Assembly (NCBI GenBank): GCA_041665625.1
Contig: JBAYIK010000003.1
Span: 2,967 to 66,966, forward strand
Origin: Minisyncoccota bacterium
Lineage (GTDB): Bacteria; Patescibacteriota; Minisyncoccia; Phycocordibacterales; XYD1-FULL-46-19
DNA: 64,000 nucleotides
Direction of reading: 5' to 3'
Part shown: positions 18,004 to 42,992 of the stretch, piece after piece
Position numbering within the stretch: position 1 is the first letter of the stretch
Layout of the letters: every line of letters starts with the position of its first letter
Notes under the pieces: model-generated
What the model saw: the letters and a program-made list of their open reading frames with translations, nothing else
The model's database searches: none
Told to the model about the DNA's origin: nothing
Position numbers and translations under genes: made by a program

Positions 18004-18046
18004 TAAAACAACACATAAAACCCCTCCAGCGAGGGGTTTTCTTACG
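18004..18046 (+). terminator. Rho-independent terminator; copy of a repeated ~40-nt element AAAACAACAC(A/T)(G/A)AAAACCCCTCCAGCGAGGGGTTTTCTTA
   Basis: Stem CCCCTC/GAGGGG followed by a T-tract. A near-identical sequence recurs at 37447-37487 and 42952-42992. Confidence 0.65.
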
Positions 18047-18184
18047 CTTCGCATCGGCCATTTTGCCATAGTTCTTCGAACAAAGGATGGCAAAAACCGG
18101 CTGGCCGTAGCTACGCGAGGTTGTTTTACTGAACAAGGCCTCGCTTAGTTGTCGGGAGTGGGGGACGAGGAGTATAATGTCTCC

Positions 18185-18952
18185 ATGTCTACAAAAATTA
18201 TTGCTGGGAACTGGAAAATGAATCCGGTGACCCTAAAGGATGCGAAGCTCACTTTTACTGGGATCAAACGTTCAGTTAGCAAGGTCCGTGGGGTCTCGGT
18301 GCTTATTTGCCCCCCCTTTATCTATTTGCCTGAGCTCAAGAAGATGTCGGCCGGTTCTAAAGTCGAGGTTGGTTCCCAGGATGTGAGTGCCAAGGATATG
18401 GGGGCGGAGACCGGGTCTGTCTCGGCCTACATGGTTCGTGATTTAGGAGTTAAGATGACAATTATCGGTCACTCGGAGAGGAGAGCGGGGGGCGACACGG
18501 ATGAGATTGTTAATCAGAAAGTTCTAACTGCTCTTACGGCCGGCCTCCATGTTATTTTATGTATCGGCGAAAAAGTTCGCGATGATAAAAGCCAGTATCT
18601 TAACACTTTACAAGAACAACTTGAGAAAGCCCTAGCTGGCTTCCCCGTAAAATTGGCTGATCGCCTGATTGTTGCTTATGAGCCCGTTTGGGCGATTGGG
18701 AAGAATGCGACGGGGGTGGAAACACCTGATGGTTTCTTGCAGAATAAAATTTTTGTTCGTAAAGTTTTGGCCGGGATCGTTGGGCGTAAGAAGGCTTTAG
18801 CTGTTCCTGTTCTTTATGGTGGCTCCGCTAATGCTCAGAATGCTGGTGATTTTCTTAAGGCCGGACAAGCTGACGGCCTCTTGGTTGGCCGTGATTCGCT
18901 TAACCCTAAGAATTTTGCCGAGATAATTAAAATTGCCAGCCAGTCTAAATAA
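18185..18952 (+). CDS. tpiA: Triosephosphate isomerase
   Basis: IIAGNWKMN, IGHSERR, AYEPVWAIG motifs. The ATG at 18185 gives a canonical N-terminus; the ORF-track start at 18149 is probably upstream of the real start. Confidence 0.85.
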   Translation: MSTKIIAGNWKMNPVTLKDAKLTFTGIKRSVSKVRGVSVLICPPFIYLPELKKMSAGSKVEVGSQDVSAKDMGAETGSVSAYMVRDLGVKMTIIGHSERRAGGDTDEIVNQKVLTALTAGLHVILCIGEKVRDDKSQYLNTLQEQLEKALAGFPVKLADRLIVAYEPVWAIGKNATGVETPDGFLQNKIFVRKVLAGIVGRKKALAVPVLYGGSANAQNAGDFLKAGQADGLLVGRDSLNPKNFAEIIKIASQSK

Positions 18953-18957
18953 AAATC

Positions 18958-20172
18958 ATGAAAACGCTAAAGGAAATTAAAAATCTCGAAGGCAAAACTG
19001 TTTTGCTTCGTGTTGCTTATGATGTCCCGATAAAACAAAAAGGCAAGAACTGGGTAGTGGCCGATGATCGAAGGATCAGAGAAACTTTACCGACTATCAA
19101 ATTTCTCCTTCAGAATAATTGCAAAATAGTTATACTCTCTTGGCTTGGTCGTCCGTCTGGTCAAGTCGTTGATAAGCTTAAAATGGACTCAGTGGCCCGA
19201 AGTTTGGCCGAAGTAACTCAAAAACCCGTTAGGAAAGTCGATGATTGTATTGGCCCCGAAGTCCAAGACGAGATAAGCTTGCTGAAGCCGGGACAGATTT
19301 TGCTCTTAGAGAATGTTCGCTTCCATCAGGGAGAAGAAAAGAATGATCCCAAATTTGCTAAGGAGTTAATAAGGGGGATTGACCTGATTGTCTTTGACGC
19401 CTTTGCCCAAGCTCACCGTATTCACGCTTCGACGACGGGGATAACAGGGCTTCTGCCAACATATGCTGGCCTGCTCTTGGAGAAGGAGCTTAATTTCTTG
19501 GGCGGCATAATGAAGAAGCCCAAGAAGCCGTTTATTGTGGTCCTTGGTGGGGCCAAAATTTCTGACAAGATTGCGGCGATCGAGAATCTTGCCAAGACGG
19601 CCGATAAAATTCTGATTGGCGGCGGTTGTGCTAATGTTTTTTTGAAAGCCAAAGGAATTCCTGTTGGAGCTTCTTTCTTAGAAGATGTCTTTGTTGATAA
19701 AGCGAAGAGAAAAAAAGTTGATTTTGTTTTGCTAGCTAAGAAAATGTTGGCCAAGTATCCCAAGAAGATTATTTTACCGGTTGATTTTGTTTCTGCTAAC
19801 AAAACTGAGGTGAATGCCAAGGTTGAGGTTGTTGACCTCGCGAAGGGGGAGATACGAAAAGATTGGAAGTTCCTAGATATTGGCCCCAAGACTGTCGAGT
19901 TCTATAATTCGGAAATCAAAAAAGCCAAAACAATACTCTGGAATGGCCCAATGGGGATGTTCGAACTACCCAAGTTCTCTAAGGGGACAAAAGATGTCGC
20001 TGAAGGGATTGCTAAATCTAAGGCCCTGACAATTATTGGTGGTGGCGATACAGAGATTGTGGCTGCTAAATATAAACTTGAGAAAAAATTTACGCACATC
20101 TCAACCGGGGGAGGGGCCATGCTCGACTACCTCGGTACTGGCAAATTAGCCGGGATTAAATCTTTAAAATAA
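18958..20172 (+). CDS. pgk: Phosphoglycerate kinase
   Basis: VLLRVAYDVP, LLENVRFH.GEEKND, ILIGGG and GGGAMLDYL motifs; about 400 aa. Confidence 0.85.
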   Translation: MKTLKEIKNLEGKTVLLRVAYDVPIKQKGKNWVVADDRRIRETLPTIKFLLQNNCKIVILSWLGRPSGQVVDKLKMDSVARSLAEVTQKPVRKVDDCIGPEVQDEISLLKPGQILLLENVRFHQGEEKNDPKFAKELIRGIDLIVFDAFAQAHRIHASTTGITGLLPTYAGLLLEKELNFLGGIMKKPKKPFIVVLGGAKISDKIAAIENLAKTADKILIGGGCANVFLKAKGIPVGASFLEDVFVDKAKRKKVDFVLLAKKMLAKYPKKIILPVDFVSANKTEVNAKVEVVDLAKGEIRKDWKFLDIGPKTVEFYNSEIKKAKTILWNGPMGMFELPKFSKGTKDVAEGIAKSKALTIIGGGDTEIVAAKYKLEKKFTHISTGGGAMLDYLGTGKLAGIKSLK

Positions 20173-20189
20173 AAATCGAGACAAATGAA

Positions 20190-20230
20190 AAACCACCAGC
20201 TGCGTTACCTGTGCAGCGGGTGGTTCATTT
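20190..20230 (+). terminator. Rho-independent terminator
   Basis: CCACCAGCTGC-gttacct-GCAGCGGGTGG followed by TTCATTT. Confidence 0.5.
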
Positions 20231-20344
20231 CAGGCTCTTTTGAAGCCCTCCCTTCGAATTTCGGTTTTCTGCCCACATTGGGCTGTTATAATTAATCAAT
20301 CTCTAACTTAAGTATAGCACAAACAGGATTATTGTCAAGCCTTG

Positions 20345-20761
20345 TTAGATTACAGCCCTTTTGATGGCTTCTTGTGTATTCTCAAAATCGGCTTTGGTCT
20401 CGCCGCCTTTGCCATGCCAGTGGGTGAAGCCATCCCCTTCGAAACGAGGGATAAGGTGGATGTGGGCGTGGAAGACTAGTTGGCCAGAGGCCTTGTCGTT
20501 ATTGATATGAACATTAAGACCATCTGCTTTTGTCCCAACTTTGATGGCACGGGCTATCTTTTGGGTAATGGGGCCAATTTTAGGGAGTATCTCCTCGGGA
20601 GCATCAAAGATATTAACAAAATGAGTTTTAGGAATAATGAGAGTATGGCCCAGATTTACTGGGTTAATGTCTAAAGTGACAATAAAGTTGTCATCTTCAT
20701 AGACTTTATAAGCGGGGATCTCACCGTTAACGATTTTGCAAAAAATGCAGTCTGTTTCCAC
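20345..20761 (-). CDS. HIT-family (histidine triad) nucleotide hydrolase
   Basis: CIFCKIVNGEIP...NLGHTLIIPKTHF...HAHIHLIPR (H.H.H.. motif). Confidence 0.8.
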   Translation of the reverse strand: METDCIFCKIVNGEIPAYKVYEDDNFIVTLDINPVNLGHTLIIPKTHFVNIFDAPEEILPKIGPITQKIARAIKVGTKADGLNVHINNDKASGQLVFHAHIHLIPRFEGDGFTHWHGKGGETKADFENTQEAIKRAVI

Positions 20762-20916
20762 CCCGTTAGAAATTTACTGCTCTTAAAATGTTTGACCTTT
20801 TATTTAAATCTCTCATCGTCATTATTATATCACATAATTTAACCTTAAATTTCTAACGGGGTCCATAGTTTTATATATTAGCTCTTATATAGTATATTGT
20901 ATAACAATAAAGACAA

Positions 20917-22668
20917 ATGATTAAGAAAAAATGGGCCCTCAGGAAGGCCATACCTAAGAAAGTCGAGAAAGAGCTAGCTAATTACCCTGAACTTGTTCGG
21001 AAGCTTCTTTTTTACCGGGGAATTGAAACGCTCAAGGAGGCAGAAATTTACCTTAACCCTGACTATGAGCGTGATTTGCCCGATCCATTCTTGATGCAAG
21101 ATATGAAGAAGGGTGTGGATCGGCTTCTCTTGGCTATTGATAAAGGCGAGCGCGTGGTCATCTTTGGTGATTATGATGCCGACGGTATTCCCGGTTCGGC
21201 TATCCTTTCCTCATTTTTTGATGAAATTAAATTTACCAATTATGAAGTTTATATTCCCGATCGTCACAATGAGGCTTATGGTCTGAATGAAAATAAAATT
21301 GGCGACTTTGTTAAACAAAATGTTAAATTAATTATCACTATCGACTGTGGCATCACTGACGTTGTCGAAGTGAAGCTGGCCCAGTCACAAGGGATAGATG
21401 TCGTAGTCACTGATCATCATTTGGTCCCCCCTATTGCTCCTCCAGCCTTTGCGGTAATTGATGCCAAGCGTAGTGATGACGAATATCCATACAAGCTCTT
21501 GGCTGGGGCTGGGGTGATGTTTAAATTTGTTTGTGCCGTGCTTGCGACTAAGCGTTTTGACATTGTCCCGGGTTGGGAGAAGTGGCTGCTAGATCTCGTT
21601 GCCATTGCTACCGTCTCAGATATGGTGGCCCTTACTGGGGAGAATAGGATGTTAGCCACTTATGGCTTAAAAGTCTTGCGTCAGACCAGACGCCTTGGTC
21701 TTCAAACCTTACTTTCTCAAATAAAACTTCGCCCAGTGAATATTATTGAGGATGATATTAGTTTTATGATTGGCCCACGTATCAACTCGGCTAGTCGTAT
21801 GTCCCATGCTTCTCAGGCCTATTATCTTCTGACAACCAAGGACCAGGCTGAGGCGCGTACTATTACAGATCATCTTGAGGAGAAGAATCAGGAACGCAAG
21901 GATGCAGTCGAGAGAATTGTTAGAGATATTGCGGAGAAGTTGGATAGTCTGGCTAGCCTGCCGGAGATCATTGTGATGGGCTCTCCTGATTGGGGTCTGG
22001 GAGTCCTTGGTATGACCTCCTCGAAGATTGTTGAGAAATACGGATGCTCGGTTTGGCTCTGGAGTAAGAATGAGGCGGGGACGATTAAGGGTTCGTGTCG
22101 TTCAGACGGCTCACTTAATGTTGTCGAGGTAATGGCTGGAGCGGGAGATAAATTCTTTAATGATTTTGGGGGTCACCCGATGGCCGGGGGATTTTCCTTG
22201 TCGGGTGATAAAGAAAAAGATTTGGCTAAGAAACTTCTTGCTTCGGCCAAGAAAGCTAAGAAGAAGGATGTCGTGACTGAACTCCTAGCGGATGAAGAGT
22301 TGTCCCTTGATCAATTGACCTGGGAAACCTATAAATTGATTGAACCTATGGCTCCCTTCGGGATGGATAATCCTAAGCCTGTCTTTTGGCTCCGGGCGGT
22401 AGAAATTGATGAGGCCAAATATTTTGGCAATGGTGGTTTGCATTTAGAATTAATGTTTAAAAAAGCTGATGGCAAGAAGATTCCCGCCATTGGTTTCTTT
22501 GCCTCGCCAACCCCGAATGATCCCAAGCATATTTTTGGCGATATTAAGTTAGAAAAGGGGGAGAAAATAGATCTCCTCGCGACCCTTGAGAAATCAATGT
22601 TTAAAAATTATCCCGAGCTTAGACTTCGGATTGTTGATATCCAGAAATCTAAAAAATCCGCTAGCTAG
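20917..22668 (+). CDS. recJ: Single-stranded-DNA-specific exonuclease RecJ
   Basis: DHH motifs VVIFGDYDADGIPGSAIL and VVVTDHH, a DHHA1-like region, ~580 aa. Confidence 0.8.
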   Translation: MIKKKWALRKAIPKKVEKELANYPELVRKLLFYRGIETLKEAEIYLNPDYERDLPDPFLMQDMKKGVDRLLLAIDKGERVVIFGDYDADGIPGSAILSSFFDEIKFTNYEVYIPDRHNEAYGLNENKIGDFVKQNVKLIITIDCGITDVVEVKLAQSQGIDVVVTDHHLVPPIAPPAFAVIDAKRSDDEYPYKLLAGAGVMFKFVCAVLATKRFDIVPGWEKWLLDLVAIATVSDMVALTGENRMLATYGLKVLRQTRRLGLQTLLSQIKLRPVNIIEDDISFMIGPRINSASRMSHASQAYYLLTTKDQAEARTITDHLEEKNQERKDAVERIVRDIAEKLDSLASLPEIIVMGSPDWGLGVLGMTSSKIVEKYGCSVWLWSKNEAGTIKGSCRSDGSLNVVEVMAGAGDKFFNDFGGHPMAGGFSLSGDKEKDLAKKLLASAKKAKKKDVVTELLADEELSLDQLTWETYKLIEPMAPFGMDNPKPVFWLRAVEIDEAKYFGNGGLHLELMFKKADGKKIPAIGFFASPTPNDPKHIFGDIKLEKGEKIDLLATLEKSMFKNYPELRLRIVDIQKSKKSAS

Positions 22669-22676
22669 CGGATTTT

Positions 22677-23060
22677 TTAGTGTCTAAAGTAATACATCGA
22701 CTTAGAACTTTTTCCCTCGAGAAAGGTGCGGCAGAATTTTTCGGCTTCTTTGTGGTCGAAGAACTTACAGCTGAAGATGTCGATAAAAGCACGATTATCA
22801 TGTTGGTCATCGAAGTGCATGGTGATGCTCGAGGTCTCGATAAATTGCATGGCGGAGTGTCCGGCGAGTTCGCCCTCAGCAAAACGTTCAATTAAGGTCG
22901 GTCCGTGGCGCTTCATATCGATGTGGTCACAGAGTTTAATCATGAATTTCTGGATCTCTTTCTTGGTGGTAATCTTCTTGGGGTTACATTTATAGACATC
23001 GATTGATGAAACCATTCCCCAACATTTTTTCTTATTATATTCTTGCTCGATTTTCTTCAT
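22677..23060 (-). CDS. Pyruvoyl-dependent decarboxylase proenzyme, SpeH/AdoMetDC-like (trimmed start MKKIEQEY)
   Basis: GHSAMQFIETSSITMHFDD...AFIDIFSCKFF resembles class-1 S-adenosylmethionine decarboxylase (processing Ser, DIFSC). The ORF-track start at 23228 would overlap the next gene; the ATG at 23060 fits better. Confidence 0.4.
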   Translation of the reverse strand: MKKIEQEYNKKKCWGMVSSIDVYKCNPKKITTKKEIQKFMIKLCDHIDMKRHGPTLIERFAEGELAGHSAMQFIETSSITMHFDDQHDNRAFIDIFSCKFFDHKEAEKFCRTFLEGKSSKSMYYFRH

Positions 23061-23147
23061 CCTTTTGGTGCTTTTTAGTATAGTCGAACTGGTCAGAATT
23101 ACAATAGAAAATGTTGATAACTTGGGTTCCCTTGCTATAATAAAAAT

Positions 23148-23672
23148 ATGGGAAAAGAAAAGAAATTGCTCATTATTATTGATGTTCAGAACTTTTTTAT
23201 TAATAAATACACTAAGGAAATCCCCCAAAGGATTGCCGACTTTCTGAAGAAGAACGGGTCTAAATACTATTTCATTGCCTTTACGAAGTATTTAAATGAC
23301 AAAAAGTCTCCTTTTTACAAAAAATTGAAGTTCAGAGAATGTCTTGGAGGTGAACAAGTAAAGATTGCTCAAGAGCTAAAAGAATTTGTTTCTAAGGATA
23401 ACCTTTTCACAAAAAGTACTTACTCGGCCTTTCAGAATAAATCTCTGACTTCTTTTATCAAGAAGCATAAAATTAATAAAATTGAGATTTGCGGCTTAAC
23501 CTCAGATGGCTGTGTTTTGGCTACGGCCTTTGAGGGTTTTGACTTAGGTTTTGACATCAAAGTTCTAAAAGATCTAACAGGAACTTGCTGGGGGCCAGAA
23601 GAATTTAATCAATCTTGTCTTAATTTGATTGGATACAAAATTGATCCTTCTCTTTTAAAATTAGATAAATAA
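23148..23672 (+). CDS. Isochorismatase-family cysteine hydrolase (nicotinamidase-like)
   Basis: LLIIIDVQNFF, catalytic-Cys region ICGLTSDGCVLATAFEGFDLGFDI. Confidence 0.55.
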   Translation: MGKEKKLLIIIDVQNFFINKYTKEIPQRIADFLKKNGSKYYFIAFTKYLNDKKSPFYKKLKFRECLGGEQVKIAQELKEFVSKDNLFTKSTYSAFQNKSLTSFIKKHKINKIEICGLTSDGCVLATAFEGFDLGFDIKVLKDLTGTCWGPEEFNQSCLNLIGYKIDPSLLKLDK

Positions 23673-23680
23673 AAAATATT

Positions 23681-25194: not shown

Positions 25195-26706
25195 ATGGCT
25201 AATTTGCGAAAAATTTTAGCCCTGCTCGTTTTTGGATTTATCGGAGGAATTACCTTTTCGAGCTTTATCAATTGGGCCTTACCTTGGGTGGGGCTTTTTT
25301 TGCTTCTTGCTCTGACTTTTTTGATTTTATTTTTTCTTTTTGCGAGGCAAAAGTTTTTCTTAGCTCTTGCCATAATTTTTGTCGGGGTTATTTTGGGCCT
25401 GATCAGATTTAATTTTGATCAAAAAATTGAGACAGCTTTGCCTGATTGTTCATCTTCCGCTAGGCCCTGCCTCGCGGTAATTGTTGCTGATCCAGATCGA
25501 CGAGATGCTTCAACCAGACTAGTGATCGAGCTTTTGAGAAATGCGACCTCAAGTGAGCCCGAGGTCGTTTTTCGCAAAAGCTCGAGAGTTCTCGCTATTG
25601 TTGATAATTTTACGAATTATTCATATGGCGACAAAGTTGAGCTTGTTGGCAAGATCGAGCGCCCACAAAATTTCCTAACAGACCAGAATACTGTCTTCGA
25701 TTATCAAAATTATTTATTAGTGCGCGGAATAGAACAGACGGTTTATCAACCTAAGTTAAAAATTATTTCACGGAGCAACGGCTCAGCTGTTAAAACGAGT
25801 CTCTATTCTCTGAAAAATAATTTCTTAGCAAATTTGCGACGCGCTTTGCCCGAGCCCTCGGCCTCCCTTGCGGGCGGGCTAATCTTGGGGGATAAGGGTG
25901 GCTTGGGTAAGAAGACAGAGGATGAATTCAGAAAAGCGGGGGTCTCGCATATCATTGTTCTGTCTGGTTATAACATTACGATTGTTGCCGAGAGCGTGCT
26001 CTATTTTTTTGCCTGGCTCACGCCGGCTTTCTCTTGGCTGCTCTCAATTGGTTCAATTTTTCTTTTTGTCCTGATGACCGGCGGCGAAGCGGCAGCTGTT
26101 CGTTCGGCGGTAATGGGCGCCATCGCGCTTATCGCTCGGCGTTATGGTCGCACTTATGATGCGGGCGTAGCTTTAATTGTTGCTGGATTTCTCATGGTTC
26201 TTTGGAATCCTAGACTCCTTGCCTTCGACCTTGGCTTCCAACTCTCCTTCCTGGCGACCCTTGGTTTGATTTATTTGTCACCGGTGGTGGAGTTTTTTAT
26301 AAATAAAATCACCGGGCTTGTGAGAAGTCGCATTTCGGGCTCACTTGAAAAACGACTTCTCACAAGCCCGGCTCCCGAGCCTGTGAGAAATGCGACTTCA
26401 AGTGAGCCCGAAGTCGTTTTTCGCACAGGCTTCTGGTCTGGTTTGAAAGAGTTAATTTGCACCACCACTGGCGCACAACTCGCCGTCTACCCTTGGCTCC
26501 TCTACAAGATGGGCAACGCTTCACTCATTGGCTTCATCGCCAATATTTTCATTCTCCCTCCTATCCCTATCGCCATGTTCTTAAGTTTCTTAACTGGTAT
26601 CACGGGTTTCCTCTCAAATTTTCTTTCTCTTCTTATTAGTTACCCAACTTATTTCTTCCTCGCTTATATCCTCAAGATGGCTCATATTTTTGCGAGTTTG
26701 TTATAA
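25195..26706 (+). CDS. comEC: ComEC/Rec2-family DNA-uptake channel, membrane 'competence' domain (N-terminal fragment of a split comEC)
   Basis: LAGGLILGDKGGLGKKTEDEFRKAGVSHIIVLSGYNITIV matches the ComEC competence-domain signature. Multiple TM helices. The MBL domain is encoded separately downstream in another frame. Confidence 0.65.
   Translation: MANLRKILALLVFGFIGGITFSSFINWALPWVGLFLLLALTFLILFFLFARQKFFLALAIIFVGVILGLIRFNFDQKIETALPDCSSSARPCLAVIVADPDRRDASTRLVIELLRNATSSEPEVVFRKSSRVLAIVDNFTNYSYGDKVELVGKIERPQNFLTDQNTVFDYQNYLLVRGIEQTVYQPKLKIISRSNGSAVKTSLYSLKNNFLANLRRALPEPSASLAGGLILGDKGGLGKKTEDEFRKAGVSHIIVLSGYNITIVAESVLYFFAWLTPAFSWLLSIGSIFLFVLMTGGEAAAVRSAVMGAIALIARRYGRTYDAGVALIVAGFLMVLWNPRLLAFDLGFQLSFLATLGLIYLSPVVEFFINKITGLVRSRISGSLEKRLLTSPAPEPVRNATSSEPEVVFRTGFWSGLKELICTTTGAQLAVYPWLLYKMGNASLIGFIANIFILPPIPIAMFLSFLTGITGFLSNFLSLLISYPTYFFLAYILKMAHIFASLL
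25531..25580. repeat. ~50-nt palindromic repeat element, copy 1, inside the comEC coding sequence
   Basis: cttttgagaaatgcgacctc|aagtgagccc|gaggtcgtttttcgcaaaag has imperfect 20-nt inverted arms around a 10-nt core. It is read in frame as ELLRNATSSEPEVVFRKS. Confidence 0.6.
26314..26369. repeat. Palindromic repeat element, copy 2 (inverted orientation, perfect 17-bp inverted repeat)
   Basis: gggcttgtgagaagtcg...gggctcactt...cgacttctcacaagccc. The core gggctcactt is the reverse complement of the aagtgagccc core of copies 1 and 3. Confidence 0.6.
26380..26430. repeat. Palindromic repeat element, copy 3 (adjacent to copy 2, opposite orientation)
   Basis: cctgtgagaaatgcgacttc|aagtgagccc|gaagtcgtttttcgcacagg is read in frame as PEPVRNATSSEPEVVFRTG, almost identical to the copy-1 peptide. 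Confidence 0.6.
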
Positions 26707-31737: not shown

Positions 31738-32535
31738 ATGAAGAAATTTTTAAGTTTATGTCAGGAAATTAAGACCTCTGATGTTATAAAAGGCGGTCGG
31801 GTTTCTTTTGTTTTCTATTTTTTCCTCACCCATATACTTAACCTGGTTTGGCATTTTAATCAGAAATTGACCAGAATTATTGCGGCTCGGCTTGCTACCC
31901 CTAAGAGATTTCTGATTAAGAATAAAACCGGTTATTTTTGGGTTTCCCCCTTTAATGATTCAATGACGGTCTCGGCTGATTATTATGATTCTCAGCTGGT
32001 TAATTGGTTAGAAAAACCACCTAAGAAGAGGATTTTTGTTGATATCGGGGCTCATATTGGACGGTATTCAATTTTAGCTGGTAGGAAATACTACAAAGTT
32101 GTTGCTTTTGAACCAAATCCAGCTATTTTTTCAGTTTTAGAAAATAATATTAAAGCTAACAATTTAGAGGAAAAAGTTAATCTACATAAAGTTGCCTTAA
32201 GTGATAAACCCGGGACAGTCCTTTTTACCGTTGACGATATTTACTCGGTAGCAAGTGGCATTTCCGATGATGGGACGGGGTTACCTGTTTCTTGTGCCCT
32301 TGGCGATGAGATTCTTAAAGGGGTTAACTTTGAAGAGATTGATTTCATCAAAATAGATGTTGAGGGCCATGATCGGGAAGTTTTAAATGGGCTAAATGAG
32401 GTTCTAACCAAGATGCCTATGGGGAGCTTCATTATGATCGAGTTTGATAATGAGACCGCAAAAACCCTAAAGAAGTACTCCTTTGAATTTGTAAAATCTG
32501 ATGGTGGACTTAACCACTTGTTCGAAAAGAGATAG
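31738..32535 (+). CDS. FkbM-family SAM-dependent methyltransferase
   Basis: FVDIGAHIGRYSILAGRKYYKVVAFEPNPAIFSVLENN...VALSDKPGTV fits the Methyltransf_21/FkbM motif. Confidence 0.6.
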   Translation: MKKFLSLCQEIKTSDVIKGGRVSFVFYFFLTHILNLVWHFNQKLTRIIAARLATPKRFLIKNKTGYFWVSPFNDSMTVSADYYDSQLVNWLEKPPKKRIFVDIGAHIGRYSILAGRKYYKVVAFEPNPAIFSVLENNIKANNLEEKVNLHKVALSDKPGTVLFTVDDIYSVASGISDDGTGLPVSCALGDEILKGVNFEEIDFIKIDVEGHDREVLNGLNEVLTKMPMGSFIMIEFDNETAKTLKKYSFEFVKSDGGLNHLFEKR

Positions 32536-32642
32536 ACCTCCTTAACTTGATAGTCTCGGTGCCCGTGTTATTCCTTGTCAAATTGTCTTGCCCGGGAGTA
32601 TTATTAGGTCATTAAAAGTTCACAATTATAATAAATAAAAAT

Positions 32643-33065
32643 ATGGAAGGAGCACCAACACGAGAGTCAAGACGAGAAGAAGATATGACCCCAATTGAAA
32701 GGGTTAGAAACGCTAGGAATATTTTAGAAGAAAAAAGAGAAAATTTAGGGAATGCTGTTGGGGAGGTTGGGAGATTGGAGTTTGTTATTCGCTATGCCGT
32801 AAAACATCCAGGAACTCCTATTTCGCAATATGTCGAAAAATATCTTGAGAAGATAGACAAATATATTGAAGATGAAGGCGAAAATGCTGATCAGAATGAT
32901 GTAGCAAAAATGGCTGACAATATGCTCAACGGTTTTAATGAGATGCTCCTGGAACAAGGAGATCTTAGCATCGCAGAAGACAACCGGTTGATGGGGAAGG
33001 GTGAAACTTTTACTCCGACACAGGCCCCTTCTGAAGAAGGGGGGTCCGGAGCCATGGCTGCTTAA
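32643..33065 (+). CDS. Hypothetical acidic protein (140 aa)
   Basis: ORF with a plausible RBS context, no recognisable domain, Glu/Asp-rich. Confidence 0.35.
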   Translation: MEGAPTRESRREEDMTPIERVRNARNILEEKRENLGNAVGEVGRLEFVIRYAVKHPGTPISQYVEKYLEKIDKYIEDEGENADQNDVAKMADNMLNGFNEMLLEQGDLSIAEDNRLMGKGETFTPTQAPSEEGGSGAMAA

Positions 33066-34849: not shown

Positions 34850-34878
34850 AAAAAAGCCCCTCCGGGGGCTTTTTTGTT
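34850..34878 (+). terminator. Rho-independent terminator between rpsJ and rplC
   Basis: AAAAAAGCCCC-tccg-GGGGCTTTTTT. Confidence 0.6.
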
Positions 34879-36589: not shown

Positions 36590-37429
36590 ATGAAAAAATA
36601 CGCCCCAACAACCCCATCCCGTCGCAACATGACCACGATTAACTATCGTGAGTATTTGACCGTCTCCGAGCCTCACAAGCCCCTTACCAAGGGTGTGAAG
36701 AGAGATGTCGGCCGCAATGGCGATGGTCGCATTACTGTTCGTCACAAGGGAGGGGGACATAAGCGCCTCTATCGTGATATTGATTTCAAATACACCAAAG
36801 TTGGTATTCCTGCCAAGATTGAGACTGTAGAGTATGATCCTAACCGCTCTGGCTTTATCGCCCTCGTTTGTTATAAGGATGGGGCTCGTGCCTATCACTT
36901 GCTACCCAAGGAGCTTAAGGTTGGCGACGTCATCTTGAATGATGCTAGCGCTGACGTGAAGACTGGTAATCGTTTGCCTCTGTCTAAAATTCCTGTCGGT
37001 ACCTTTATTTATAATATCGAGACCAAGCCGGGGAGTGGGGCTAAGTTTGTCCGTTCTGCTGGTTCTTATGCCGAGGTTGTCTCTCACGATGCCGGTTATA
37101 CCGCTATCAAGATGCCTTCAACCGAAATTCACAAATTACTTGATACTTGTTCCGCTTCGGTTGGTGCCGTTTCTAATGATGAGCACAAGCTGGTGAAATA
37201 TGGTAAGGCTGGTCGCTCTCGTTGGATGGGTATCCGCCCAACCGTTCGTGGTACCGCTATGAACCCTGTCGACCATCCATACGGTGGAGGTGAAGGTGTC
37301 CAGGGTCGCGGAACTAAGCGTCCTAAGACTATGTGGGGTAAGGTTACCGGTGGCCGTAAGACTCGTCATCCTAAGAAATATTCTAACCACCTCGTTGTTT
37401 CTCGCCGTAAGGTTGGGAAGCGTAAATAG
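36590..37429 (+). CDS. rplB: 50S ribosomal protein L2
   Basis: MKKYAPTTPSRR...GGGHKRLYR...NPVDHPYGGGEG. The ATG at 36590 sits just after the rplW stop; the ORF-track TTG start at 36581 overlaps it. Confidence 0.9.
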   Translation: MKKYAPTTPSRRNMTTINYREYLTVSEPHKPLTKGVKRDVGRNGDGRITVRHKGGGHKRLYRDIDFKYTKVGIPAKIETVEYDPNRSGFIALVCYKDGARAYHLLPKELKVGDVILNDASADVKTGNRLPLSKIPVGTFIYNIETKPGSGAKFVRSAGSYAEVVSHDAGYTAIKMPSTEIHKLLDTCSASVGAVSNDEHKLVKYGKAGRSRWMGIRPTVRGTAMNPVDHPYGGGEGVQGRGTKRPKTMWGKVTGGRKTRHPKKYSNHLVVSRRKVGKRK

Positions 37430-37446
37430 ACGCTCCACTTGCTCAA

Positions 37447-37487
37447 TAAAACAACACAGAAAACCCCTCCAGCGAGGGGTTTTCTTA
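37447..37487 (+). terminator. Rho-independent terminator, second copy of the repeated ~40-nt element
   Basis: AAAACAACACAGAAAACCCCTCCAGCGAGGGGTTTTCTTA is identical to the hairpin at 18004-18046. Confidence 0.65.
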
Positions 37488-37617
37488 TCCACTCTTAGTT
37501 TTTCTCTAAACCATATCTATGGTGCTATAATAAATTTAGGCGTAAACGCTTGCTTTGTTTTATTATAAATTTATTATTAATCAATGTCTCGCTTAGCGGG
37601 ATTTAAAAACTAATTTA

Positions 37618-39267
37618 ATGAAAAAATATATTTTAGGAGCCATCCTCGTTTTATCGCTGGTTGTCGTTCCTTTTGTATCTTCGGCTCAGACTTCTGGGAT
37701 TGCCCCCTGCCCGATTATCACGGTTAATTTATCTCTGGGTAGCACTGGGCCCGACGTCACGGCGCTTCAGAAGTATTTGATTGAAGAAGGCCTGTTAAAC
37801 ATAGAAGGGGGTGGCCCCACTGGCTATTTTGGTGATCTAACTAGGGCTGCTGTTGTCCGATGGCAGACTGATCACAACATTCTCAACGAGACTGGCTTCG
37901 GTCCCTTGTCTCGAGCCGCTTTAGACTCCCTCTGTTCTGTCTCAGGTAAAGAAATTTCTCCTCGCATCTCAGGTGTCTCTGGTCAAATCCAGGGTAAAAT
38001 TTATCCTGGGGCTTGGATTAAACTTACAGGGAATCGTTTGACGGCTGACGTACGTATTACTAAATCTGGTAATCCAAACATTGTTATCAAGCCTGAGGCA
38101 AAAAGTGTTACTTATTATGATGAGGGCCGAGAGAGAATGAGGATTGACTTCCAGCTTAGTTCCACCACTCCGGTTGGGAGCTACTATATCAATGTCTATA
38201 GTGCTACGGGAGTGAAGAGCCCAACAGTGCCTTTCCGTGTTGTTAAGAGGCCAGTGGCCGCCGACGGCCTTCTTGATCCGGTTATTGTCTCTGTTTCTGC
38301 CAGCACTACTGATATCTACCCTGGTTCATGGGTTAAATTACTTGGCAAAAGACTCAGTGGTGATGTTCGAATTACTAAACATAATTATCCCAACATCATT
38401 ATCAAGCCGGTGGCAAGAATTAATGCAGACGCCTCGAGGGTTGATTTCAAACTTCCTCCTGAAGTAACTGTTGGTGCTTACTATCTTAATGTTTACAGCG
38501 ATGTCGGACGCAATAGTAATACTATGCCATTGAGGGTGGTGGGCTCTAATTCTGAGGAAAATGTTCAACCAACAATTACCTTTGTTTCTCCAAGTGGAGG
38601 AGAAACATTTAAGTCAGGGCAACAAGTGATTGTTAGATATGATATGGCTAATTTCCTTCGAGTTGCTAACGTTCAAATTCAACTTAATAAAGGAGCTATT
38701 TATCCTGGGGGTCCTTATAACCCAGTGGGCAATGCTACTAATTATATGCCCGCCGGTCATTATACTTTTACTATTCCAGCAGATGCTCCTTCGGGGGATG
38801 ACTATAGCTTTATGATTAATTCTGATTACCCTAATACGGAAACTAGTGCTCATTTCCAATCGAACATTTTTAGTATCGTTGCCCCCGATACCTCTGCCTC
38901 TGGTAGGCCACGTATAGAGGGAGAGGTTCTTACTGGTGTCTCTGGTCATGGCACTGGCCATTGGCTTAGAATTCGTGGGGCTCGTCTGACGAACAATGTC
39001 GTTATTCGTAAATACGGCGGAACAGCCACGACAACTCTCTCTGGGGGTATCGTTTCTGGTGTTCCTGGTAATGCTGCCGCTTTCCTTGATATTGAGTTAA
39101 ATATCCCAGTTGGGAGCTATCAGCTTAATATAATTGGTTCTGATGGCACGGTTAGTAACACAGTAAGACTGAACGTCACAGCGGAAACGGCAAGCTCAAG
39201 AGCTAGTCAAATTGCAGCTGTCGCTAGCGCTATCCAGGCTCTGGTTGCTCAACTTAAGGTTCAGTAA
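37618..39267 (+). CDS. Secreted cell-wall-binding protein: N-terminal PG_binding_1-like domain plus three IPT/TIG-like beta-sandwich repeats; inserted between rplB and rpsS
   Basis: Signal peptide MKKYILGAILVLSLVVVPFVSSA. LSLGSTGPDVTALQKYLIEEGLL...GYFGDLTRAAVVRWQ matches the peptidoglycan-binding-domain consensus. Repeats begin YPGAWIKLTGNRLTADVRITK..., YPGSWVKLLGKRLSGDVRITK..., GHWLRIRGARLTNNVVIRK.... Confidence 0.6.
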   Translation: MKKYILGAILVLSLVVVPFVSSAQTSGIAPCPIITVNLSLGSTGPDVTALQKYLIEEGLLNIEGGGPTGYFGDLTRAAVVRWQTDHNILNETGFGPLSRAALDSLCSVSGKEISPRISGVSGQIQGKIYPGAWIKLTGNRLTADVRITKSGNPNIVIKPEAKSVTYYDEGRERMRIDFQLSSTTPVGSYYINVYSATGVKSPTVPFRVVKRPVAADGLLDPVIVSVSASTTDIYPGSWVKLLGKRLSGDVRITKHNYPNIIIKPVARINADASRVDFKLPPEVTVGAYYLNVYSDVGRNSNTMPLRVVGSNSEENVQPTITFVSPSGGETFKSGQQVIVRYDMANFLRVANVQIQLNKGAIYPGGPYNPVGNATNYMPAGHYTFTIPADAPSGDDYSFMINSDYPNTETSAHFQSNIFSIVAPDTSASGRPRIEGEVLTGVSGHGTGHWLRIRGARLTNNVVIRKYGGTATTTLSGGIVSGVPGNAAAFLDIELNIPVGSYQLNIIGSDGTVSNTVRLNVTAETASSRASQIAAVASAIQALVAQLKVQ

Positions 39268-39277
39268 GTTAATTTAG

Positions 39278-39322
39278 AAAACCGCCCAGGCCTCGGGAAA
39301 CCAGAGGTCTGGGCGGTTTTTT
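39278..39322 (+). terminator. Rho-independent terminator
   Basis: AAACCGCCCAGG...CCTGGGCGGTTTTTT. Confidence 0.55.
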
Positions 39323-39451
39323 GTGGGGCCTGAAGGGCTTTTGTTGACATTGAGCCAGTTTTTGCTATGATGACAGAGCTCATATTTGGGCGTTTATTTT
39401 TGCTCGTCAGGGTGTGCCAATCGGCCACTTCAACGGGTGTTTAAATTAATT

Positions 39452-39796
39452 ATGGCAAGATCACTATCTAAGGGTCCCTATGTGGACGAAAATTTATTAA
39501 AGAAAATCGCTGGTAAGAAGGCGAGCGATGCTAGCGTAGGTGTTATCAAAACCTGGGCTCGTCGCAGTCAAATTAGCCCTGAGATGGTTGGTTTTACTTT
39601 TGGTGTTCATAATGGCAAGAGCCACTTAGAGGTCTTTGTGACCGAAGAAATGGTTGGCCATCGTTTGGGCGAATTTTCCCCAACCCGTAAGTTCACTAAG
39701 CACGGAGGTAAGATGCAGAAAGAAATAGAACAGAAGAAGAAGGAGGCTGAGATCTCAGCTGCTAAATCAGCTAAGGAATCCCCAGCTAAGAAATAA
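39452..39796 (+). CDS. rpsS: 30S ribosomal protein S19 (with a Lys/Glu-rich C-terminal tail)
   Basis: [18 protein letters not shown]...[17 protein letters not shown]. The ATG at 39452 is preferred over the ORF-track start at 39386. Confidence 0.9.
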
Positions 39797-39798
39797 TC

Positions 39799-40140
39799 AT
39801 GAAAGCTTTTCTTAAGAACCATCATCAAACCCCAAGAAAGACCCGCCTAATCGCGGATCTTATCCGTGGCAAGAAGGTCTCGGTAGCGATGGCTGAGCTC
39901 GACTTGGTAATTAAGAAATCCGCTGCCCCCATCAAGAAGCTTATTCAATCAGCTGTGGCTAATGCTAAAGCTAATTTTAAGGCTAAGGAAGAAGAACTCT
40001 ATGTTAAGAATTTGACCGTTGATAAGGGTAATGTCATCAAGCGCTCCCGTCCAATGTCTCGTGGTCGAGCTTTTCCTATCCGTCACCGTTTGAGCCATAT
40101 CGAAGTCACTTTGGAAGCTAAAGAACCTACTAAAAAATAA
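39799..40140 (+). CDS. rplV: 50S ribosomal protein L22
   Basis: PRKTRLIADLIRGKKVSVAMAEL. Confidence 0.85.
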   Translation: MKAFLKNHHQTPRKTRLIADLIRGKKVSVAMAELDLVIKKSAAPIKKLIQSAVANAKANFKAKEEELYVKNLTVDKGNVIKRSRPMSRGRAFPIRHRLSHIEVTLEAKEPTKK

Positions 40141-40141
40141 T

Positions 40142-40807
40142 ATGACACACCGCGTTCATCCATATGCACATAGACTCACTATTATCCGCGACTGGCAATC
40201 TCGCTGGTTTGGTAAGGGTGAGAAATATGTTGAATTCCTAAAGGCTGACGTTCTTTTGCGCGAATTTCTGACCAAGCGTTTGCGTGGTTTCTATGTTGAC
40301 CGTGTTGATATTGAGCGTGGAGAAAATTTCTATAAAATTATCGTTCGCACCTCTCGTCCTGGTATGATTATTGGCCGCGGGGGAGATGGTATCACCAAGC
40401 TTAAGAGTGAGATTATTACTCAACTTCAGAAAACTGGTACCACTCTACCTAAGGATGTTCAGGTTGATATCCAAGAGGTTAAGGAACCTGAGGCTAGTGC
40501 CGCAATTGTTGCCTACATGATCGCTGAAGGTTTGGAGAAGCGTTTGCCTTTCCGTCGTGTCTTGAAGCAAACGGTTGAGAAAGTTTTGAACAGCAAATCC
40601 GTTAAAGGGGTTAAGGTTACCTTGTCTGGCCGTCTGGGTGGTGCTGATATGGGTCGTACTGAGACCTTGCGTAAGGGTCAGGTCCCTCTTCAGACTTTGC
40701 GTGCTGATATTGATTTTGCTCGTGAGAAGGCCTATATGTATTACGGCGTGACTGGTATTAAGGTCTGGATTTATCGGGGCGAGATTTTTAACACTGAGAA
40801 TAAATAA
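40142..40807 (+). CDS. rpsC: 30S ribosomal protein S3
   Basis: KH domain IIGRGGDGITKLK; GKGEKYVEF...LRADIDFAREKAYMYYG. Confidence 0.9.
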   Translation: MTHRVHPYAHRLTIIRDWQSRWFGKGEKYVEFLKADVLLREFLTKRLRGFYVDRVDIERGENFYKIIVRTSRPGMIIGRGGDGITKLKSEIITQLQKTGTTLPKDVQVDIQEVKEPEASAAIVAYMIAEGLEKRLPFRRVLKQTVEKVLNSKSVKGVKVTLSGRLGGADMGRTETLRKGQVPLQTLRADIDFAREKAYMYYGVTGIKVWIYRGEIFNTENK

Positions 40808-40813
40808 ACTACC

Positions 40814-41230
40814 ATGTTATTACCAAAGAAAGTAAAATTCAGAAAGTGGCAAACCATGCGGACTAACCCTAAGAAGGTTAAGACCGAAACGCGTGGGACA
40901 AAATTGGCTTTTGGTAATTTTGGTTTGAAGGCTGAGACCCCGGGCCGTATTAAGTCTAATCAGATTGAAGCTGCTCGTAAGACTATTGCCCGCCAAATGC
41001 ACAAGACTGGTAAACTTTGGATCCGCATCTTCCCTGATATGCCTTTTACCGCTAAAGCCGCTGAGGTGGGTATGGGTAAAGGTAAAGGTGATCCTCAGGG
41101 TTATCAGATCCAGGTTTGGCCAGGTCGTTTAATTTTTGAAGTTGACGGTCTTACTGATGAGATTGCTAAGGAGGCCTTGCGTAAAGCTGGTGCCAAATTA
41201 CCAATCAAGACTAAGATTGTTAGCCGTTAA
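40814..41230 (+). CDS. rplP: 50S ribosomal protein L16
   Basis: [11 protein letters not shown]...[11 protein letters not shown]...[16 protein letters not shown]. Confidence 0.9.
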
Positions 41231-41239
41231 GATAAGAAT

Positions 41240-41425
41240 ATGAAAAAGACCGATTTTAAAACTAAATCAGACGCTGAATTAAAGAAAGTTCTCATTGAGA
41301 AACGAGATTCTTTGGCTAAATTCAAGTTCGGCATGACCGGTTCCCGTACCAAGAATGTCAAAGAAGGGCGCAATACTCGTCGAGATATTGCCAGAATTTT
41401 AACCGCCCTCAAGGCCAGCAAATAA
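41240..41425 (+). CDS. rpmC: 50S ribosomal protein L29
   Basis: Size and position; ELKKVLIEKRDSLAKFKFGMTGS. Confidence 0.75.
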   Translation: MKKTDFKTKSDAELKKVLIEKRDSLAKFKFGMTGSRTKNVKEGRNTRRDIARILTALKASK

Positions 41426-41430
41426 ATAAT

Positions 41431-41676
41431 ATGGAAAAAGAAATTAAAAATAAGAAAGTTCTTAAGGGGAAGGTTGTCTCTGACAAGATGGATAAGACTG
41501 TCGTTGTTGAGATCAAGCGCTTTGTGAAGCACCCTAAGTACGGTAAGTTCTTCAATCTTTCTAAGCGTCACAAGGCTCATGATCCAGAGAATAAGGCCAA
41601 GATCGGAGACGAAGTCGAGATTCGTGAGTGTCGCCCATTATCGAAAGATAAACATTTCGAAGTAATTTATAAATAA
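41431..41676 (+). CDS. rpsQ: 30S ribosomal protein S17
   Basis: LKGKVVSDKMDKTVVVEI...KFFNLSKRHKAHDPEN. Confidence 0.85.
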   Translation: MEKEIKNKKVLKGKVVSDKMDKTVVVEIKRFVKHPKYGKFFNLSKRHKAHDPENKAKIGDEVEIRECRPLSKDKHFEVIYK

Positions 41677-41682
41677 ACTACC

Positions 41683-42054
41683 ATGATTCAGCCACAATCC
41701 ATTGTAAAAATTGCCGACAACACTGGCGCCAAGATTGGACGCGTCTTCAAGGTGCTCGGTAGCTCGAAGAAACGTTATGCCCGGATTGGCGAGCTGGTTA
41801 TTCTCTCTGTCCAGACCGCTGAGCCTCGCAAGGCCGTTAAGAAGAAGGAAGTTCTCCGCGCTTTGGTTGTCCGTCAGAAATCACCTTTTCGTCGCGCTGA
41901 TGGTTCTTACCTCCGCTTTGACGAGAATGCTGTTGTTATCCTAGACAAGACCAAGCCTGAACCACGTGGTGGACGTATCTTTGGACCTATTCCTCGTGAG
42001 ATTGGTGAATTGGGTTATCAGAAAATTGTGTCATTAGCCCCAGAAGTGGTATAA
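41683..42054 (+). CDS. rplN: 50S ribosomal protein L14
   Basis: MIQPQSIVKIADNTGAK...VIRQ pattern. Confidence 0.9.
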   Translation: MIQPQSIVKIADNTGAKIGRVFKVLGSSKKRYARIGELVILSVQTAEPRKAVKKKEVLRALVVRQKSPFRRADGSYLRFDENAVVILDKTKPEPRGGRIFGPIPREIGELGYQKIVSLAPEVV

Positions 42055-42066
42055 ACAAATACGAGT

Positions 42067-42375
42067 ATGAAAATCAAAAAGAATGACAATGTAGTAATCA
42101 TCACTGGTAAGGATCGCGGCAAGCAGGGCAAAGTTTTGCGTGTATTGGCCGAAGATGAGAAGGTCTTAGTGGAGGGGATGAATCTTCGTAAGAAGCATCA
42201 GAAGCCTCGCAAAGAAGGGGACAAGGGTCAGATGATTGATATGCCACATCCAATCCATATTTCTAATGTTGCCCTTTATTGTTCTAGTTGTGGTAAGGGT
42301 GTTCGCATGGGTGCTAAGATGGCTGATGGTAAGAAAAAAGTCCGCGTTTGCAAGAAGTGCGGTAAAGAAATTTAA
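42067..42375 (+). CDS. rplX: 50S ribosomal protein L24 with a C-terminal C4 zinc-ribbon extension
   Basis: KOW motif IKKNDNVVIITGKDRGKQGKVLRV. C-terminal CSSCGKG...CKKCGK. Confidence 0.85.
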   Translation: MKIKKNDNVVIITGKDRGKQGKVLRVLAEDEKVLVEGMNLRKKHQKPRKEGDKGQMIDMPHPIHISNVALYCSSCGKGVRMGAKMADGKKKVRVCKKCGKEI

Positions 42376-42381
42376 AATACT

Positions 42382-42930
42382 ATGAAGAAGTTAAAAGAAA
42401 AAATTGAAGCCGCGATGCCCGAACTCAAGAAGGAGTTGGGTGTTAAGAATAAGATGGCGACCCCTCACTTGGTGAAGGTGGTTGTTAATTCTGGAACCGG
42501 TAAAGCTAAGGACAAGAAACGTAATGAATTGGTGGAGAATCGTCTCGGTAAGATCACTGGTCAGAAGGCTTCGCCTCGTGGCGCCAAGCAGTCTGTAGCT
42601 TCCTTCAAGGTTCGTCAGGGTGATATCATTGGTTTTGCTACCACTCTTCGTGGCCAGCGCATGTATGACTTCCTCGATCTTCTCTTTAATGTCACTATTC
42701 CTCGTATTCGTGACTTCAAGGGTTATGATGAAAAAATTGTGGATGAAGTTGGTAATTTAACTTTGGGTGTTAAAGAGCATACCGTTTTCCCTCAGACCGC
42801 TGACGAAGAACTCAAAGATGTTTTCGGTCTCGCTATCACCATCGTTACTTCCGCTAAAGATAAGAAATCCGCCCTCGCTTTCTTCAAGGCAATCGGTTTT
42901 CCTTTCAAGAAGCCTGTTGCTGCCAAATAA
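42382..42930 (+). CDS. rplE: 50S ribosomal protein L5
   Basis: LKEKIEAAMPELKKELG...GLAITIVTSAKD. Confidence 0.9.
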   Translation: MKKLKEKIEAAMPELKKELGVKNKMATPHLVKVVVNSGTGKAKDKKRNELVENRLGKITGQKASPRGAKQSVASFKVRQGDIIGFATTLRGQRMYDFLDLLFNVTIPRIRDFKGYDEKIVDEVGNLTLGVKEHTVFPQTADEELKDVFGLAITIVTSAKDKKSALAFFKAIGFPFKKPVAAK

Positions 42931-42951
42931 TCCACTCAACTTAAATTTACC

Positions 42952-42992
42952 AAAACAACACAGAAAACCCCTCTTCAGAGGGTTTTTCTTAT
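42952..42992 (+). terminator. Rho-independent terminator, third copy of the repeated element
   Basis: AAAACAACACAGAAAACCCCTCTTCAGAGGGTTTTTCTTA carries a variant loop (TTCA). Confidence 0.6.

Follow-up and report, generated by a model that had tools for sequence, protein, structure and literature searches.

We analysed a 64,000-nt stretch of DNA from a Minisyncoccota bacterium (assembly GCA_041665625.1, contig JBAYIK010000003.1, positions 2,967 to 66,966; hereafter the window), and our results point to a family of interspersed palindromic repeats at the ends of its genes. Three 40-nt modules on the + strand (18004-18046, 37447-37487 and 42952-42992), together with a fourth copy after secY, probably belong to a lineage-specific family of Candidatus (Ca.) Vogelbacteria-like Paceibacteria that is terminator-like in one part and resembles miniature inverted-repeat transposable elements (MITEs) as a whole. 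The full element is about 165-170 nt long and comprises a 5' arm, a terminator-like hairpin 1, a long hairpin 2 and a 3' arm, and the 40-nt module corresponds to the 5' third of the 164-nt copy 1 when this copy is lined up with those of relatives. An initial annotation of the window had recognised the three modules as related copies and suspected that they might be more than plain terminators; both ideas are borne out here, the module being the 5' part of a repeat family that is gained or lost at syntenic sites. Its further proposal, that the terminator travelled as a cassette with a downstream secreted-protein gene, is contradicted by most of the evidence. Candidate phyla radiation bacteria have very small genomes, and to our knowledge almost no interspersed repeats or non-coding elements have been described in them; a literature search on repeats or terminators of this group found nothing specific. 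The palindromic repeat family of these Vogelbacteria-like genomes is previously undescribed, and its sequence is a member of none of the known systems with which we compared it.

The kinship of the copies in the window is supported by several searches. With up to 3 mismatches allowed, the 22-mer AAAACAACACAGAAAACCCCTC has three matches (18005, 37448 and 42952), which contain at most one mismatch, where 0.01 are expected by chance, and 0 of 100 shuffles attained three. A gapless repeat search returned the same sites as one family (18000-18044, 37443-37487 and 42947-42991), the other two being 96% and 80% identical to copy 1. Similarity extends beyond the hairpin and further 5' than originally noted, into an arm of about 25 nt that starts at the stop codon of the upstream gene (TAG followed by GCGCTCGGCC..., TAG by ACGCTCC... 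and TAA by TCCACTC...). The variant loop reported for copy 3 is also present: loop and stem read CCCCTCTTCAGAGGGT, with TTCA as the loop and one stem mismatch, and the predicted energy is -12.6 kcal/mol. Copy 4, absent from the original observation, brings the number in the window to four; it has the 5' arm ACGCTCAGGTTGTTGCCTATAAAAC and the hairpin AGAAAAATCCCC-GGAT-GGGGTTTTTCT at 49211-49237, followed by a T-tract, and belongs to the same subfamily (B) as a module found after rplB in L025 (loci of relatives carry L numbers here). When a covariance model of the 5' module was scanned over the window with filters off, the four copies, all of which are in its training alignment, gave four strong matches of 81, 80, 64 and 51 bits; the next best match, at 25 bits, comes from copy 2's own hairpin on the reverse strand, and other sites score about 20 bits or less.

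Copy 1 reveals the complete element (Table 1). It extends about 105 nt 3' past the 40-nt module to make up a structured element of 164 nt, which can be aligned end to end with 11 other full-length copies (nhmmer E = 5e-58) and has a predicted fold of -74 kcal/mol (z = -4.55). In the full element, hairpin 1 reads AAAACCCCTC-CAGC-GAGGGGTTTT and then UUUUCUUA, and hairpin 2, GGCCATTTTGCCAT...ATGGCAAAAACCGGCTGGCC, has a bulge of 6 nt and a tip whose length varies (17 nt in copy 1, 29 nt in L001 and L006, 44 nt in L004). The predicted single-strand fold is a three-way junction closed by an outer stem of 20 or more base pairs formed from the 5' and 3' arms, and the L001 copy has an additional hairpin. 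Copy 2 is a decayed full-length copy. Its hairpin 2 is eroded and now contains a TGCTATAAT -10 box (37523-37531), its 3' arm survives as the remnant TTGTTTTAT...TCTCGCTTAG up to the end of the copy (TCTCGCTTAG at 37587-37596), and AAUAAAACAA retains residual pairing with UUGUUUUAUU; nhmmer aligns it to model positions 4-65 (E = 2e-15) and the covariance model assigns it 79.7 bits. Copy 3 is truncated, with a TGCTATAAT -10 box directly 3' of it (42992-43000) and a covariance score of 64.3 bits, and the orthologous site in L016/L006 holds a full-length copy.

Copies in relatives were collected by scanning one genome per species with the 22-mer, then by a scan of metagenomes and finally by a profile search of the fetched loci. 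The first scan gave matches in Ca. Vogelbacteria bin-1736 and in a Paceibacterota metagenome-assembled genome and the metagenome scan a dozen more; about 20 further copies are known from Ca. Vogelbacteria/Paceibacterota genomes and metagenomes, after unrelated genes and all in the sense orientation of the gene upstream. The profile search yielded 14 full-length alignments, representing 12 distinct sequences, and several truncated copies made up of the 5' arm and hairpin 1. That flank, loop and arm are held in common and that the same unit recurs some 20 times in related genomes argues for homology rather than convergence. L002 has a single-hairpin copy without hairpin 2 in which the flank AACAACACAG pairs directly with CTGTGTTGTT; the conserved 5' flank that was first noticed thus represents in part the A-rich strand with which the element's U-rich side pairs. 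Generic terminators of the window (7432-7477, 11015-11050, 34850-34876 and 58291-58328) form long and perfect palindromes, the T-tract TTTTTGTTT being mirrored by an A-rich 5' flank, AAACAAAAA, and because they share this A-tract/stem/T-tract design, an A-rich 5' flank alone is no evidence of shared descent. Rfam 15 has no family for the element: at the gathering score the sole match in the window is the transfer-messenger RNA (tmRNA), and at E <= 10 the interval 17900-18250 returns only sub-threshold terminator-like noise.

The element is positioned with respect to the gene upstream of it. It starts 0-4 nt after the stop codon in the sense orientation, and a same-strand stop codon is found at the element start in 17 of the 19 placements checked; of the other two, one is a locus that is cut at its end and one the second strand of the L002 copy, which is palindromic. 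Copy 4 after secY also fits. In L001, L005 and L008, both members of convergent pairs of genes about 1 kb apart obey this rule, and the orientation thus follows transcription of the upstream gene and not replication. Hairpin 1 has a stem of 10-12 bp, 5-6 of them G-C, a 4-nt loop and a UUUUCUUA tail in which 6 of 8 nt are U, with a predicted energy of about -20 kcal/mol (in copy 2, -20.3 kcal/mol, z = -5.8). A GC-rich stem-loop followed by a U-rich tract, in sense position downstream of a gene end, has the features of an intrinsic terminator, and the terminator reading of the initial annotation is therefore plausible; we suggest that hairpin 1 may work as an intrinsic terminator for the upstream gene.

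Pairing is maintained across the family. Standard pairs occupy 96% of the alignment cells in the family structure and 93% of the outer-arm cells, and compensatory double changes occur in 15 of 54 pairs, compared to 6.9 +/- 1.6 in shuffles and 1-3 with partners slid. Helix 1, formed by the two arms, shows such changes in 11 of its 22 pairs across copies, and in the diverged L008b/L005b subfamily two stem pairs of hairpin 1 covary (AAAGCCCTTC/GAAGGGCTTT) while the CAGC loop is kept. Mean pairwise identity among the 12 copies is 95% in the inner segment and hairpin 1, 88% in the hairpin 2 stems and 63-66% in the arms. This pattern is the inverse of that of classical MITEs, with the centre most and the arms least conserved.

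Comparison of syntenic junctions indicates that copies come and go. According to Pfam, copy 1 has on its 5' side the 471-aa open reading frame (ORF) with which a type IV pilus-like operon ends and on its 3' side tpiA-pgk, and here the 164-nt element occupies exactly the interval from the TAG stop to the -35 box. In L032 and L033, which share the synteny of pilus operon and tpiA (TpiA 85% and 78% identical, respectively), the tpiA promoter comes directly after the stop codon, with no element between them, which implies that copies are gained or lost. Other copies are retained: orthologous-site copies are present in different genomes following SMC, RNase R, rplE and two more genes, their arms differing in a compensatory manner, and three orthologous sites carry a full-length copy in some genomes and a truncated one in others. 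The family has many dispersed non-coding copies, four of them in the 64 kb of the window, with presence/absence differences, which is a trait of MITEs. As for terminal repeats, the arms are complementary within a copy and only as similar between copies as given above, which is atypical of terminal inverted repeats recognised by a transposase.

From these observations we propose that copies would arise by a MITE-like or otherwise duplicative process and would afterwards be kept at orthologous sites by selection for pairing. Hairpin 1 and its U-tract would act as the intrinsic terminator of the upstream transcription unit, while the outer stem and hairpin 2 would form only in read-through transcripts, in which they might provide a second transcription block or a structure for protection or processing of the 3' end. 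Where a downstream promoter evolved or was placed, the 3' part might decay until the 5' arm and hairpin 1 are left, as may have happened after rplB, rplE and secY.

The copies in the ribosomal cluster are those for which joint movement with a gene was initially proposed, on the grounds that two of them stand in front of paralogous secreted-protein genes. Their positions are as described: by Pfam, copy 2 has rplB on its 5' side and, on its 3' side, a 549-aa PG_binding_1/Kre9_KNH protein gene and then rpsS, while copy 3 is preceded by rplE and followed by a 527-aa PG_binding_1 protein gene and then by the genes for a metallophosphoesterase, rpsN and rpsH. The paralogy is more restricted than described, as the two proteins are alike only over the signal peptide and PG-binding domain (39% over the first ~100 aa). 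A transfer of terminator, promoter and secreted-protein gene together into ribosomal operons would be in agreement with the finding that all three truncated modules of the window precede the three PG_binding_1 inserts of this cluster, and with the rplE-site gene being most similar (49% over 255 aa) to the rplB-site gene of L025, itself preceded by a bare hairpin 1; local co-duplication is possible for copy 3 and its gene. As a general account, however, we regard the cassette as very improbable and largely refuted. Most family members lie away from such genes, copy 1 and most of the relatives' copies being located beside unrelated ones (tpiA on the 3' side; SMC and RNase R on the 5' side), and the module abuts the upstream stop codon at insert-free sites as well. 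The spacers that separate module from gene (130, 40 and 65 nt) lack homology and cannot be aligned beyond the TGCTATAAT -10 box, a generic motif that occurs elsewhere in the window too, and the third insert has a different N-terminus and a PG_binding_1 domain at its C-terminus.

The relatives separate module and gene directly. We compared rplB-rpsS and rplE-rpsH in relatives found via L2 homologues, with contig 5 of bin-1736 (L2 98% identical) compared by gene map. The rplB/rpsS junction carries an insert of 549 aa in the window and of 586, 616, 754+424 or 699 aa in relatives, with none in L026 and L028; the rplE junction carries one of 527 aa in the window and of 254, 201 or 550 aa in relatives, with none in L025, L026 and L027. 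L027 has the gene of the window's rplB site together with its 5' untranslated region TTATTATAAATTTATTATTAA and lacks the module, L026 has no insert after rplB and instead a plain palindromic terminator and a promoter, L028 lacks a module at the rplE site although an insert is present there, and L025 has a diverged module after rplB. Inserts without module and module without inserts indicate that the two are independent and coincide at break points of operons. The inserts come with promoters of their own (a generic TGnTATAAT box) and with unrelated terminators of their own, behind which lie promoters for the ribosomal genes that follow. We suggest that the inserted genes may be separate transcription units at clade-variable operon break points, not brought in by the module. 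We also considered that an insert had split an element, and rejected this idea because downstream of the inserts there is no 3' arm and unrelated terminators are found instead (Table 1). The break-point genes vary in number, size and domains between genomes with L2 80-98% identical and are absent in some; the inserted proteins form a mosaic family with a common MKKY... signal peptide and TIAELQ... N-terminus, homologues of which occupy different break points depending on the genome. A YfcE-like metallophosphoesterase gene (Metallophos_2; 44691-45194 in the window) is found between rplE and rpsN/rpsH in all relatives examined (L016 and L025-L028) and seems to be a non-ribosomal gene with a fixed place in this clade's spc operon.

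Table 1. Positions in the window of the repeat copies, their parts and the inserted genes of the ribosomal cluster
Feature	Coordinates	Strand	Remarks
Copy 1, full-length, 164 nt	17985-18148	+	Between TAG stop (17982-17984) and tpiA -35 box TTGTCG (18149)
Copy 1, 5' arm GCGCTCGGCCTTGCTTCATTAAAACAAC	17985-18012	+	Pairs with 3' arm (helix 1)
Copy 1, hairpin 1	18015-18044	+	Stem-loop AAAACCCCTC-CAGC-GAGGGGTTTT at 18017-18040; U-rich tail TTTTCTTA
Copy 1, hairpin 2 CGCTTCGCATCGGCCATTTTGCCAT...ATGGCAAAAACCGGCTGGCCGTAGCTACGCG	18045-18117	+	6-nt bulge ACCGGC, two internal loops, variable tip
Copy 1, 3' arm GTTGTTTTACTGAACAAGGCCTCGC, then TTAG	18120-18148	+	Complementary to 5' arm
Copy 2, decayed full-length	37430-37596	+	After rplB (stop 37427-37429)
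Copy 2, 5' arm	37430-37455	+	
Copy 2, hairpin 1	37458-37485	+	
Copy 3, truncated	42931-42991	+	After rplE (stop 42928-42930); only 5' arm and hairpin 1 kept
Copy 3, 5' arm	42931-42959	+	
Copy 3, hairpin 1 variant	42962-42988	+	Loop TTCA
Copy 4, diverged 5' module	49184-49247	+	After secY (stop 49181-49183); covariance model 50.9 bits
Inserted gene, 549-aa secreted protein (PG_binding_1, Kre9_KNH)	37618-39267	+	Context, outside the element
Own terminator of the 549-aa insert	39283-39320		Followed by rpsS promoter
Inserted gene, 527-aa secreted protein (PG_binding_1)	43036-44619	+	Context, outside the element
Own terminator of the 527-aa insert	44641-44679		Followed by TGTTATAAT box for the metallophosphoesterase gene
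Third insert, 1224 aa (Beta_helix, C-terminal PG_binding_1)	49302-52976	+	Between secY and the next gene (53007-53636), which we take to be adk from its synteny with L026

Several observations weigh against a MITE-like terminator family. No target-site duplication is consistent across copies: TAG...TAG surrounds copies 1 and 2, the 3' junction is TAA in L004, L005a and L008a and TTG or TTC in the other 7 of the 12 distinct full-length copies, and with junctions that differ in this way a target duplication is not established. Nor is there a parent insertion sequence with matching ends in the window and the 33 loci, and the Y1 (IS200-like) transposase genes of relatives are flanked by unrelated hairpins. 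G-U pairs in the stems (8) are not in excess of A-C mismatches (9), and the covariation is therefore no proof that the + strand is structured as RNA; DNA-level pairing, or correction of one arm by the other, could give the same pattern. The core is far more conserved than a terminator requires, also in comparison to flanking orthologous coding sequences, which are 74-81% identical, and this hints at sequence-specific recognition or gene conversion. Moreover, the 5' arm is conserved even in truncated copies that lack its pairing partner, and termination itself is something that we infer from hairpin 1 and its position.

Some of these observations would be accommodated if the element were a trans-recognised structured RNA, that is, a module acting in cis in 3' untranslated or intercistronic regions, as an RNase III site or a platform for a dedicated protein, with termination being secondary. 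The predicted three-way junction with short conserved junction strands, the conserved CAGC loop and 6-nt bulge, a core that is 84-99% identical across genomes within arms that vary with compensation, and the strict sense orientation all fit such a module; variable tip lengths and the extra hairpin in L001 are typical of structured RNA families, the outer stem is of sufficient length for RNase III, and one of the L008 copies has a gene for this enzyme next to it. We nevertheless consider this reading unlikely, given that Rfam offers no match even at the permissive threshold, that the G-U pairs show no excess, that many copies persist at gene ends without hairpin 2 and the 3' arm, that the full structure requires read-through of hairpin 1, and that the neighbouring genes share no common function. 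Rather doubtful, too, is the possibility that these are ordinary terminators, inherited vertically from an old duplication and homogenised by gene conversion, with no mobility. The retention of orthologous-site copies between genes that have diverged to the extent given above speaks for it, as does the style of the genome's generic terminators, which are A-tract/T-tract palindromes of the same kind. So does the finding that two paralogous cores on one contig (L022/L023) are 99% identical as opposed to 90% for the orthologous cores of L015/L020, which suggests that there is some concerted evolution. Gene conversion does not explain how a first copy reaches a new gene end, however, and it is at odds with the clean presence/absence at the tpiA junction, with the occurrence of a subfamily B module after secY in the window and after rplB in L025, and with near-identical cores within different arms at non-orthologous sites. 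A family of MITE-like repeats with a terminator-like 5' part is the reading that we prefer.

Going further, it is tempting to speculate that the element is an active and site-selective unit, mobile or recombinogenic, which lands exactly on stop codons, regenerates the stop (TAG...TAG) and delivers a terminator, and whose copies in the ribosomal cluster mark hot spots at which mosaic genes for secreted cell-wall-binding proteins are swapped between close relatives; or else that a dedicated protein of these ultra-small bacteria recognises the invariant core. We regard this scenario as a long shot. Mobile elements of another kind are present in the relatives: Y1_Tnp (Pfam) genes, IS200-like or RAYT-like, are located in L025 (3160-3897), L011 (6560-7320, - strand) and L023 (10205-10570, - strand), flanked on both sides by a hairpin of their own in direct orientation (GGGGGAGGTTGAGCCTCCCCC in L025; TCCAAGGATTACCCTTGGA together with a duplicated TGTTATAAT promoter in L011). 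The Y1 gene of L025 lies between fusA and tuf, a position taken in the window by genes for an FkbM-type methyltransferase and a 140-aa ORF (31738-33065). A link of the repeat to a REP-RAYT system was rejected because the hairpins flanking the Y1 genes are unlike the element and neither the L025 nor the L011 hairpin occurs in the window, which also contains no Y1 gene. In L008, an 835-nt stretch without long ORFs (4653-5488) separates two convergent full-length elements and includes, at 5372-5407, part of a third one in rearranged form as well as additional copies of the CCTCGCTTA motif; with one mismatch allowed, this motif occurs 9 times in the window compared to 3.4 expected.

Other identities of the element were tried and rejected. 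A minus-strand small RNA ending in hairpin 1 disagrees with the covarying outer stem, which passes the would-be termination point, and with an orientation that follows the upstream gene, in convergent pairs too. The antisense ORFs of the copies are in different frames, which argues against a small coding gene. For a self-cleaving ribozyme or retron-like non-coding RNA, we found no hammerhead core, junction strands of only 2-3 nt, no adjacent reverse transcriptase gene and no Rfam match. In an integron attC site the RYYYAAC ... GTTRRRY core sites would be expected to pair; in the element these are unpaired, the base of the outer stem reads GCGCTC.../...CTCGC, and an RYYYAAC-like GCTTAAC is found only at the 3' end of some copies, where it is unpaired. 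A phage origin was dismissed because the viral contigs scanned contained no matches to the element.

Among known repeats, SPRITE and bcr1 are closest in function and habit. SPRITE of pneumococcus is an interspersed repeat with a predicted structure that includes a Rho-independent terminator-like motif and is biased to gene 3' ends (PMC3184786). The element described here shares the terminator-like motif and the habit of residing at gene 3' ends but comes from a different phylum and has no sequence relationship that we could find; it is also longer, forms a three-way junction with a closing stem, and lies 0-4 nt from the stop codon after co-directional as well as convergent genes. The bcr1 repeat of the Bacillus cereus group is about 155 bp long, has a distribution that is not conserved between related strains, and keeps a cruciform-like structure through compensatory changes (PMC3184786). 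Size, non-conserved distribution and compensatory changes are thus similar, whereas bcr1 has consistent 5-bp direct repeats where our element has no consistent duplication, is not tied to stop codons, and is known to be transcribed while our element is known from sequence alone. ERIC/IRU and Correia MITEs affect transcript processing or provide promoters (PMC3184786). They are more loosely similar, being non-coding imperfect palindromes of about 100-170 nt in intergenic positions, some with TA flanks; however, their terminal inverted repeats are well conserved, while the arms of our element are its least conserved part, and a TA duplication is found in only 5 of the 12 present copies. A looser likeness also exists to REP/BIME and REPIN-RAYT systems, which are GC-rich extragenic palindromes at gene 3' ends, long-inherited and composed of hairpins, and related genomes do have Y1 genes; the difference is that the Y1 genes of L025, L011 and L023 have their own hairpins and are IS200-like, that none is present in the window, and that the seen density of our element, about one copy per 10-20 kb, is below that of classical REPs. 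Finally, hairpin 1 resembles plain intrinsic terminators in its GC stem, tetraloop, U-rich tail, sense orientation and location directly after stop codons, but unrelated terminators share no loop, flanks or 25-nt upstream arm, and have no conserved 170-nt structure. The family is unusual in two traits: it strictly abuts stop codons, and its core is better conserved than its ends.

The window holds a second palindromic repeat family, with copies at 25527-25582 and 26376-26431 (+), an inverted copy near 26300-26346, and further copies in L005 (~1240-1290) and L031 (~3900-3960). Its hairpin is CGAGCTTTTGAGAAATGCGACCTC-AAGTGAGCCC-GAGGTCGTTTTTCGCAAAAGCT, in which the loop AAGTGAGCCC is conserved. 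Two copies lie in frame within comEC (25195-26706), both being translated as ...RNATSSEPEVVFR..., a feature that recalls the palindromic elements of Rickettsia, and the hairpin is intergenic in relatives. The tmRNA gene is found at 59994-60390 (+), with an Rfam score of 137 bits and the tag peptide ANASNKGLVASPYFSPAFALA predicted by ARAGORN. In the pilus region upstream, the paralogous ORFs 3826-7026 (1066 aa) and 7558-10989 (1143 aa) have a common 300-nt C-terminal repeat (73% identity), and the latter contains internal tandem duplications of about 650 nt.

For these bacteria, the family and its covariance model, R1, provide an alignable unit with which to study transcription-unit boundaries in Paceibacteria. 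The S10-spc cluster of this clade is cut into several transcription units, with breaks at rplB/rpsS, rplE/metallophosphoesterase and secY/downstream gene that are accompanied by highly variable genes for secreted proteins. The family may be of use for the annotation of gene ends, as a strain marker, and for following the spread of small palindromic repeats in genomes that are poor in mobile elements. If it is true that the placement at stop codons reflects targeting, this would represent a new insertion specificity.

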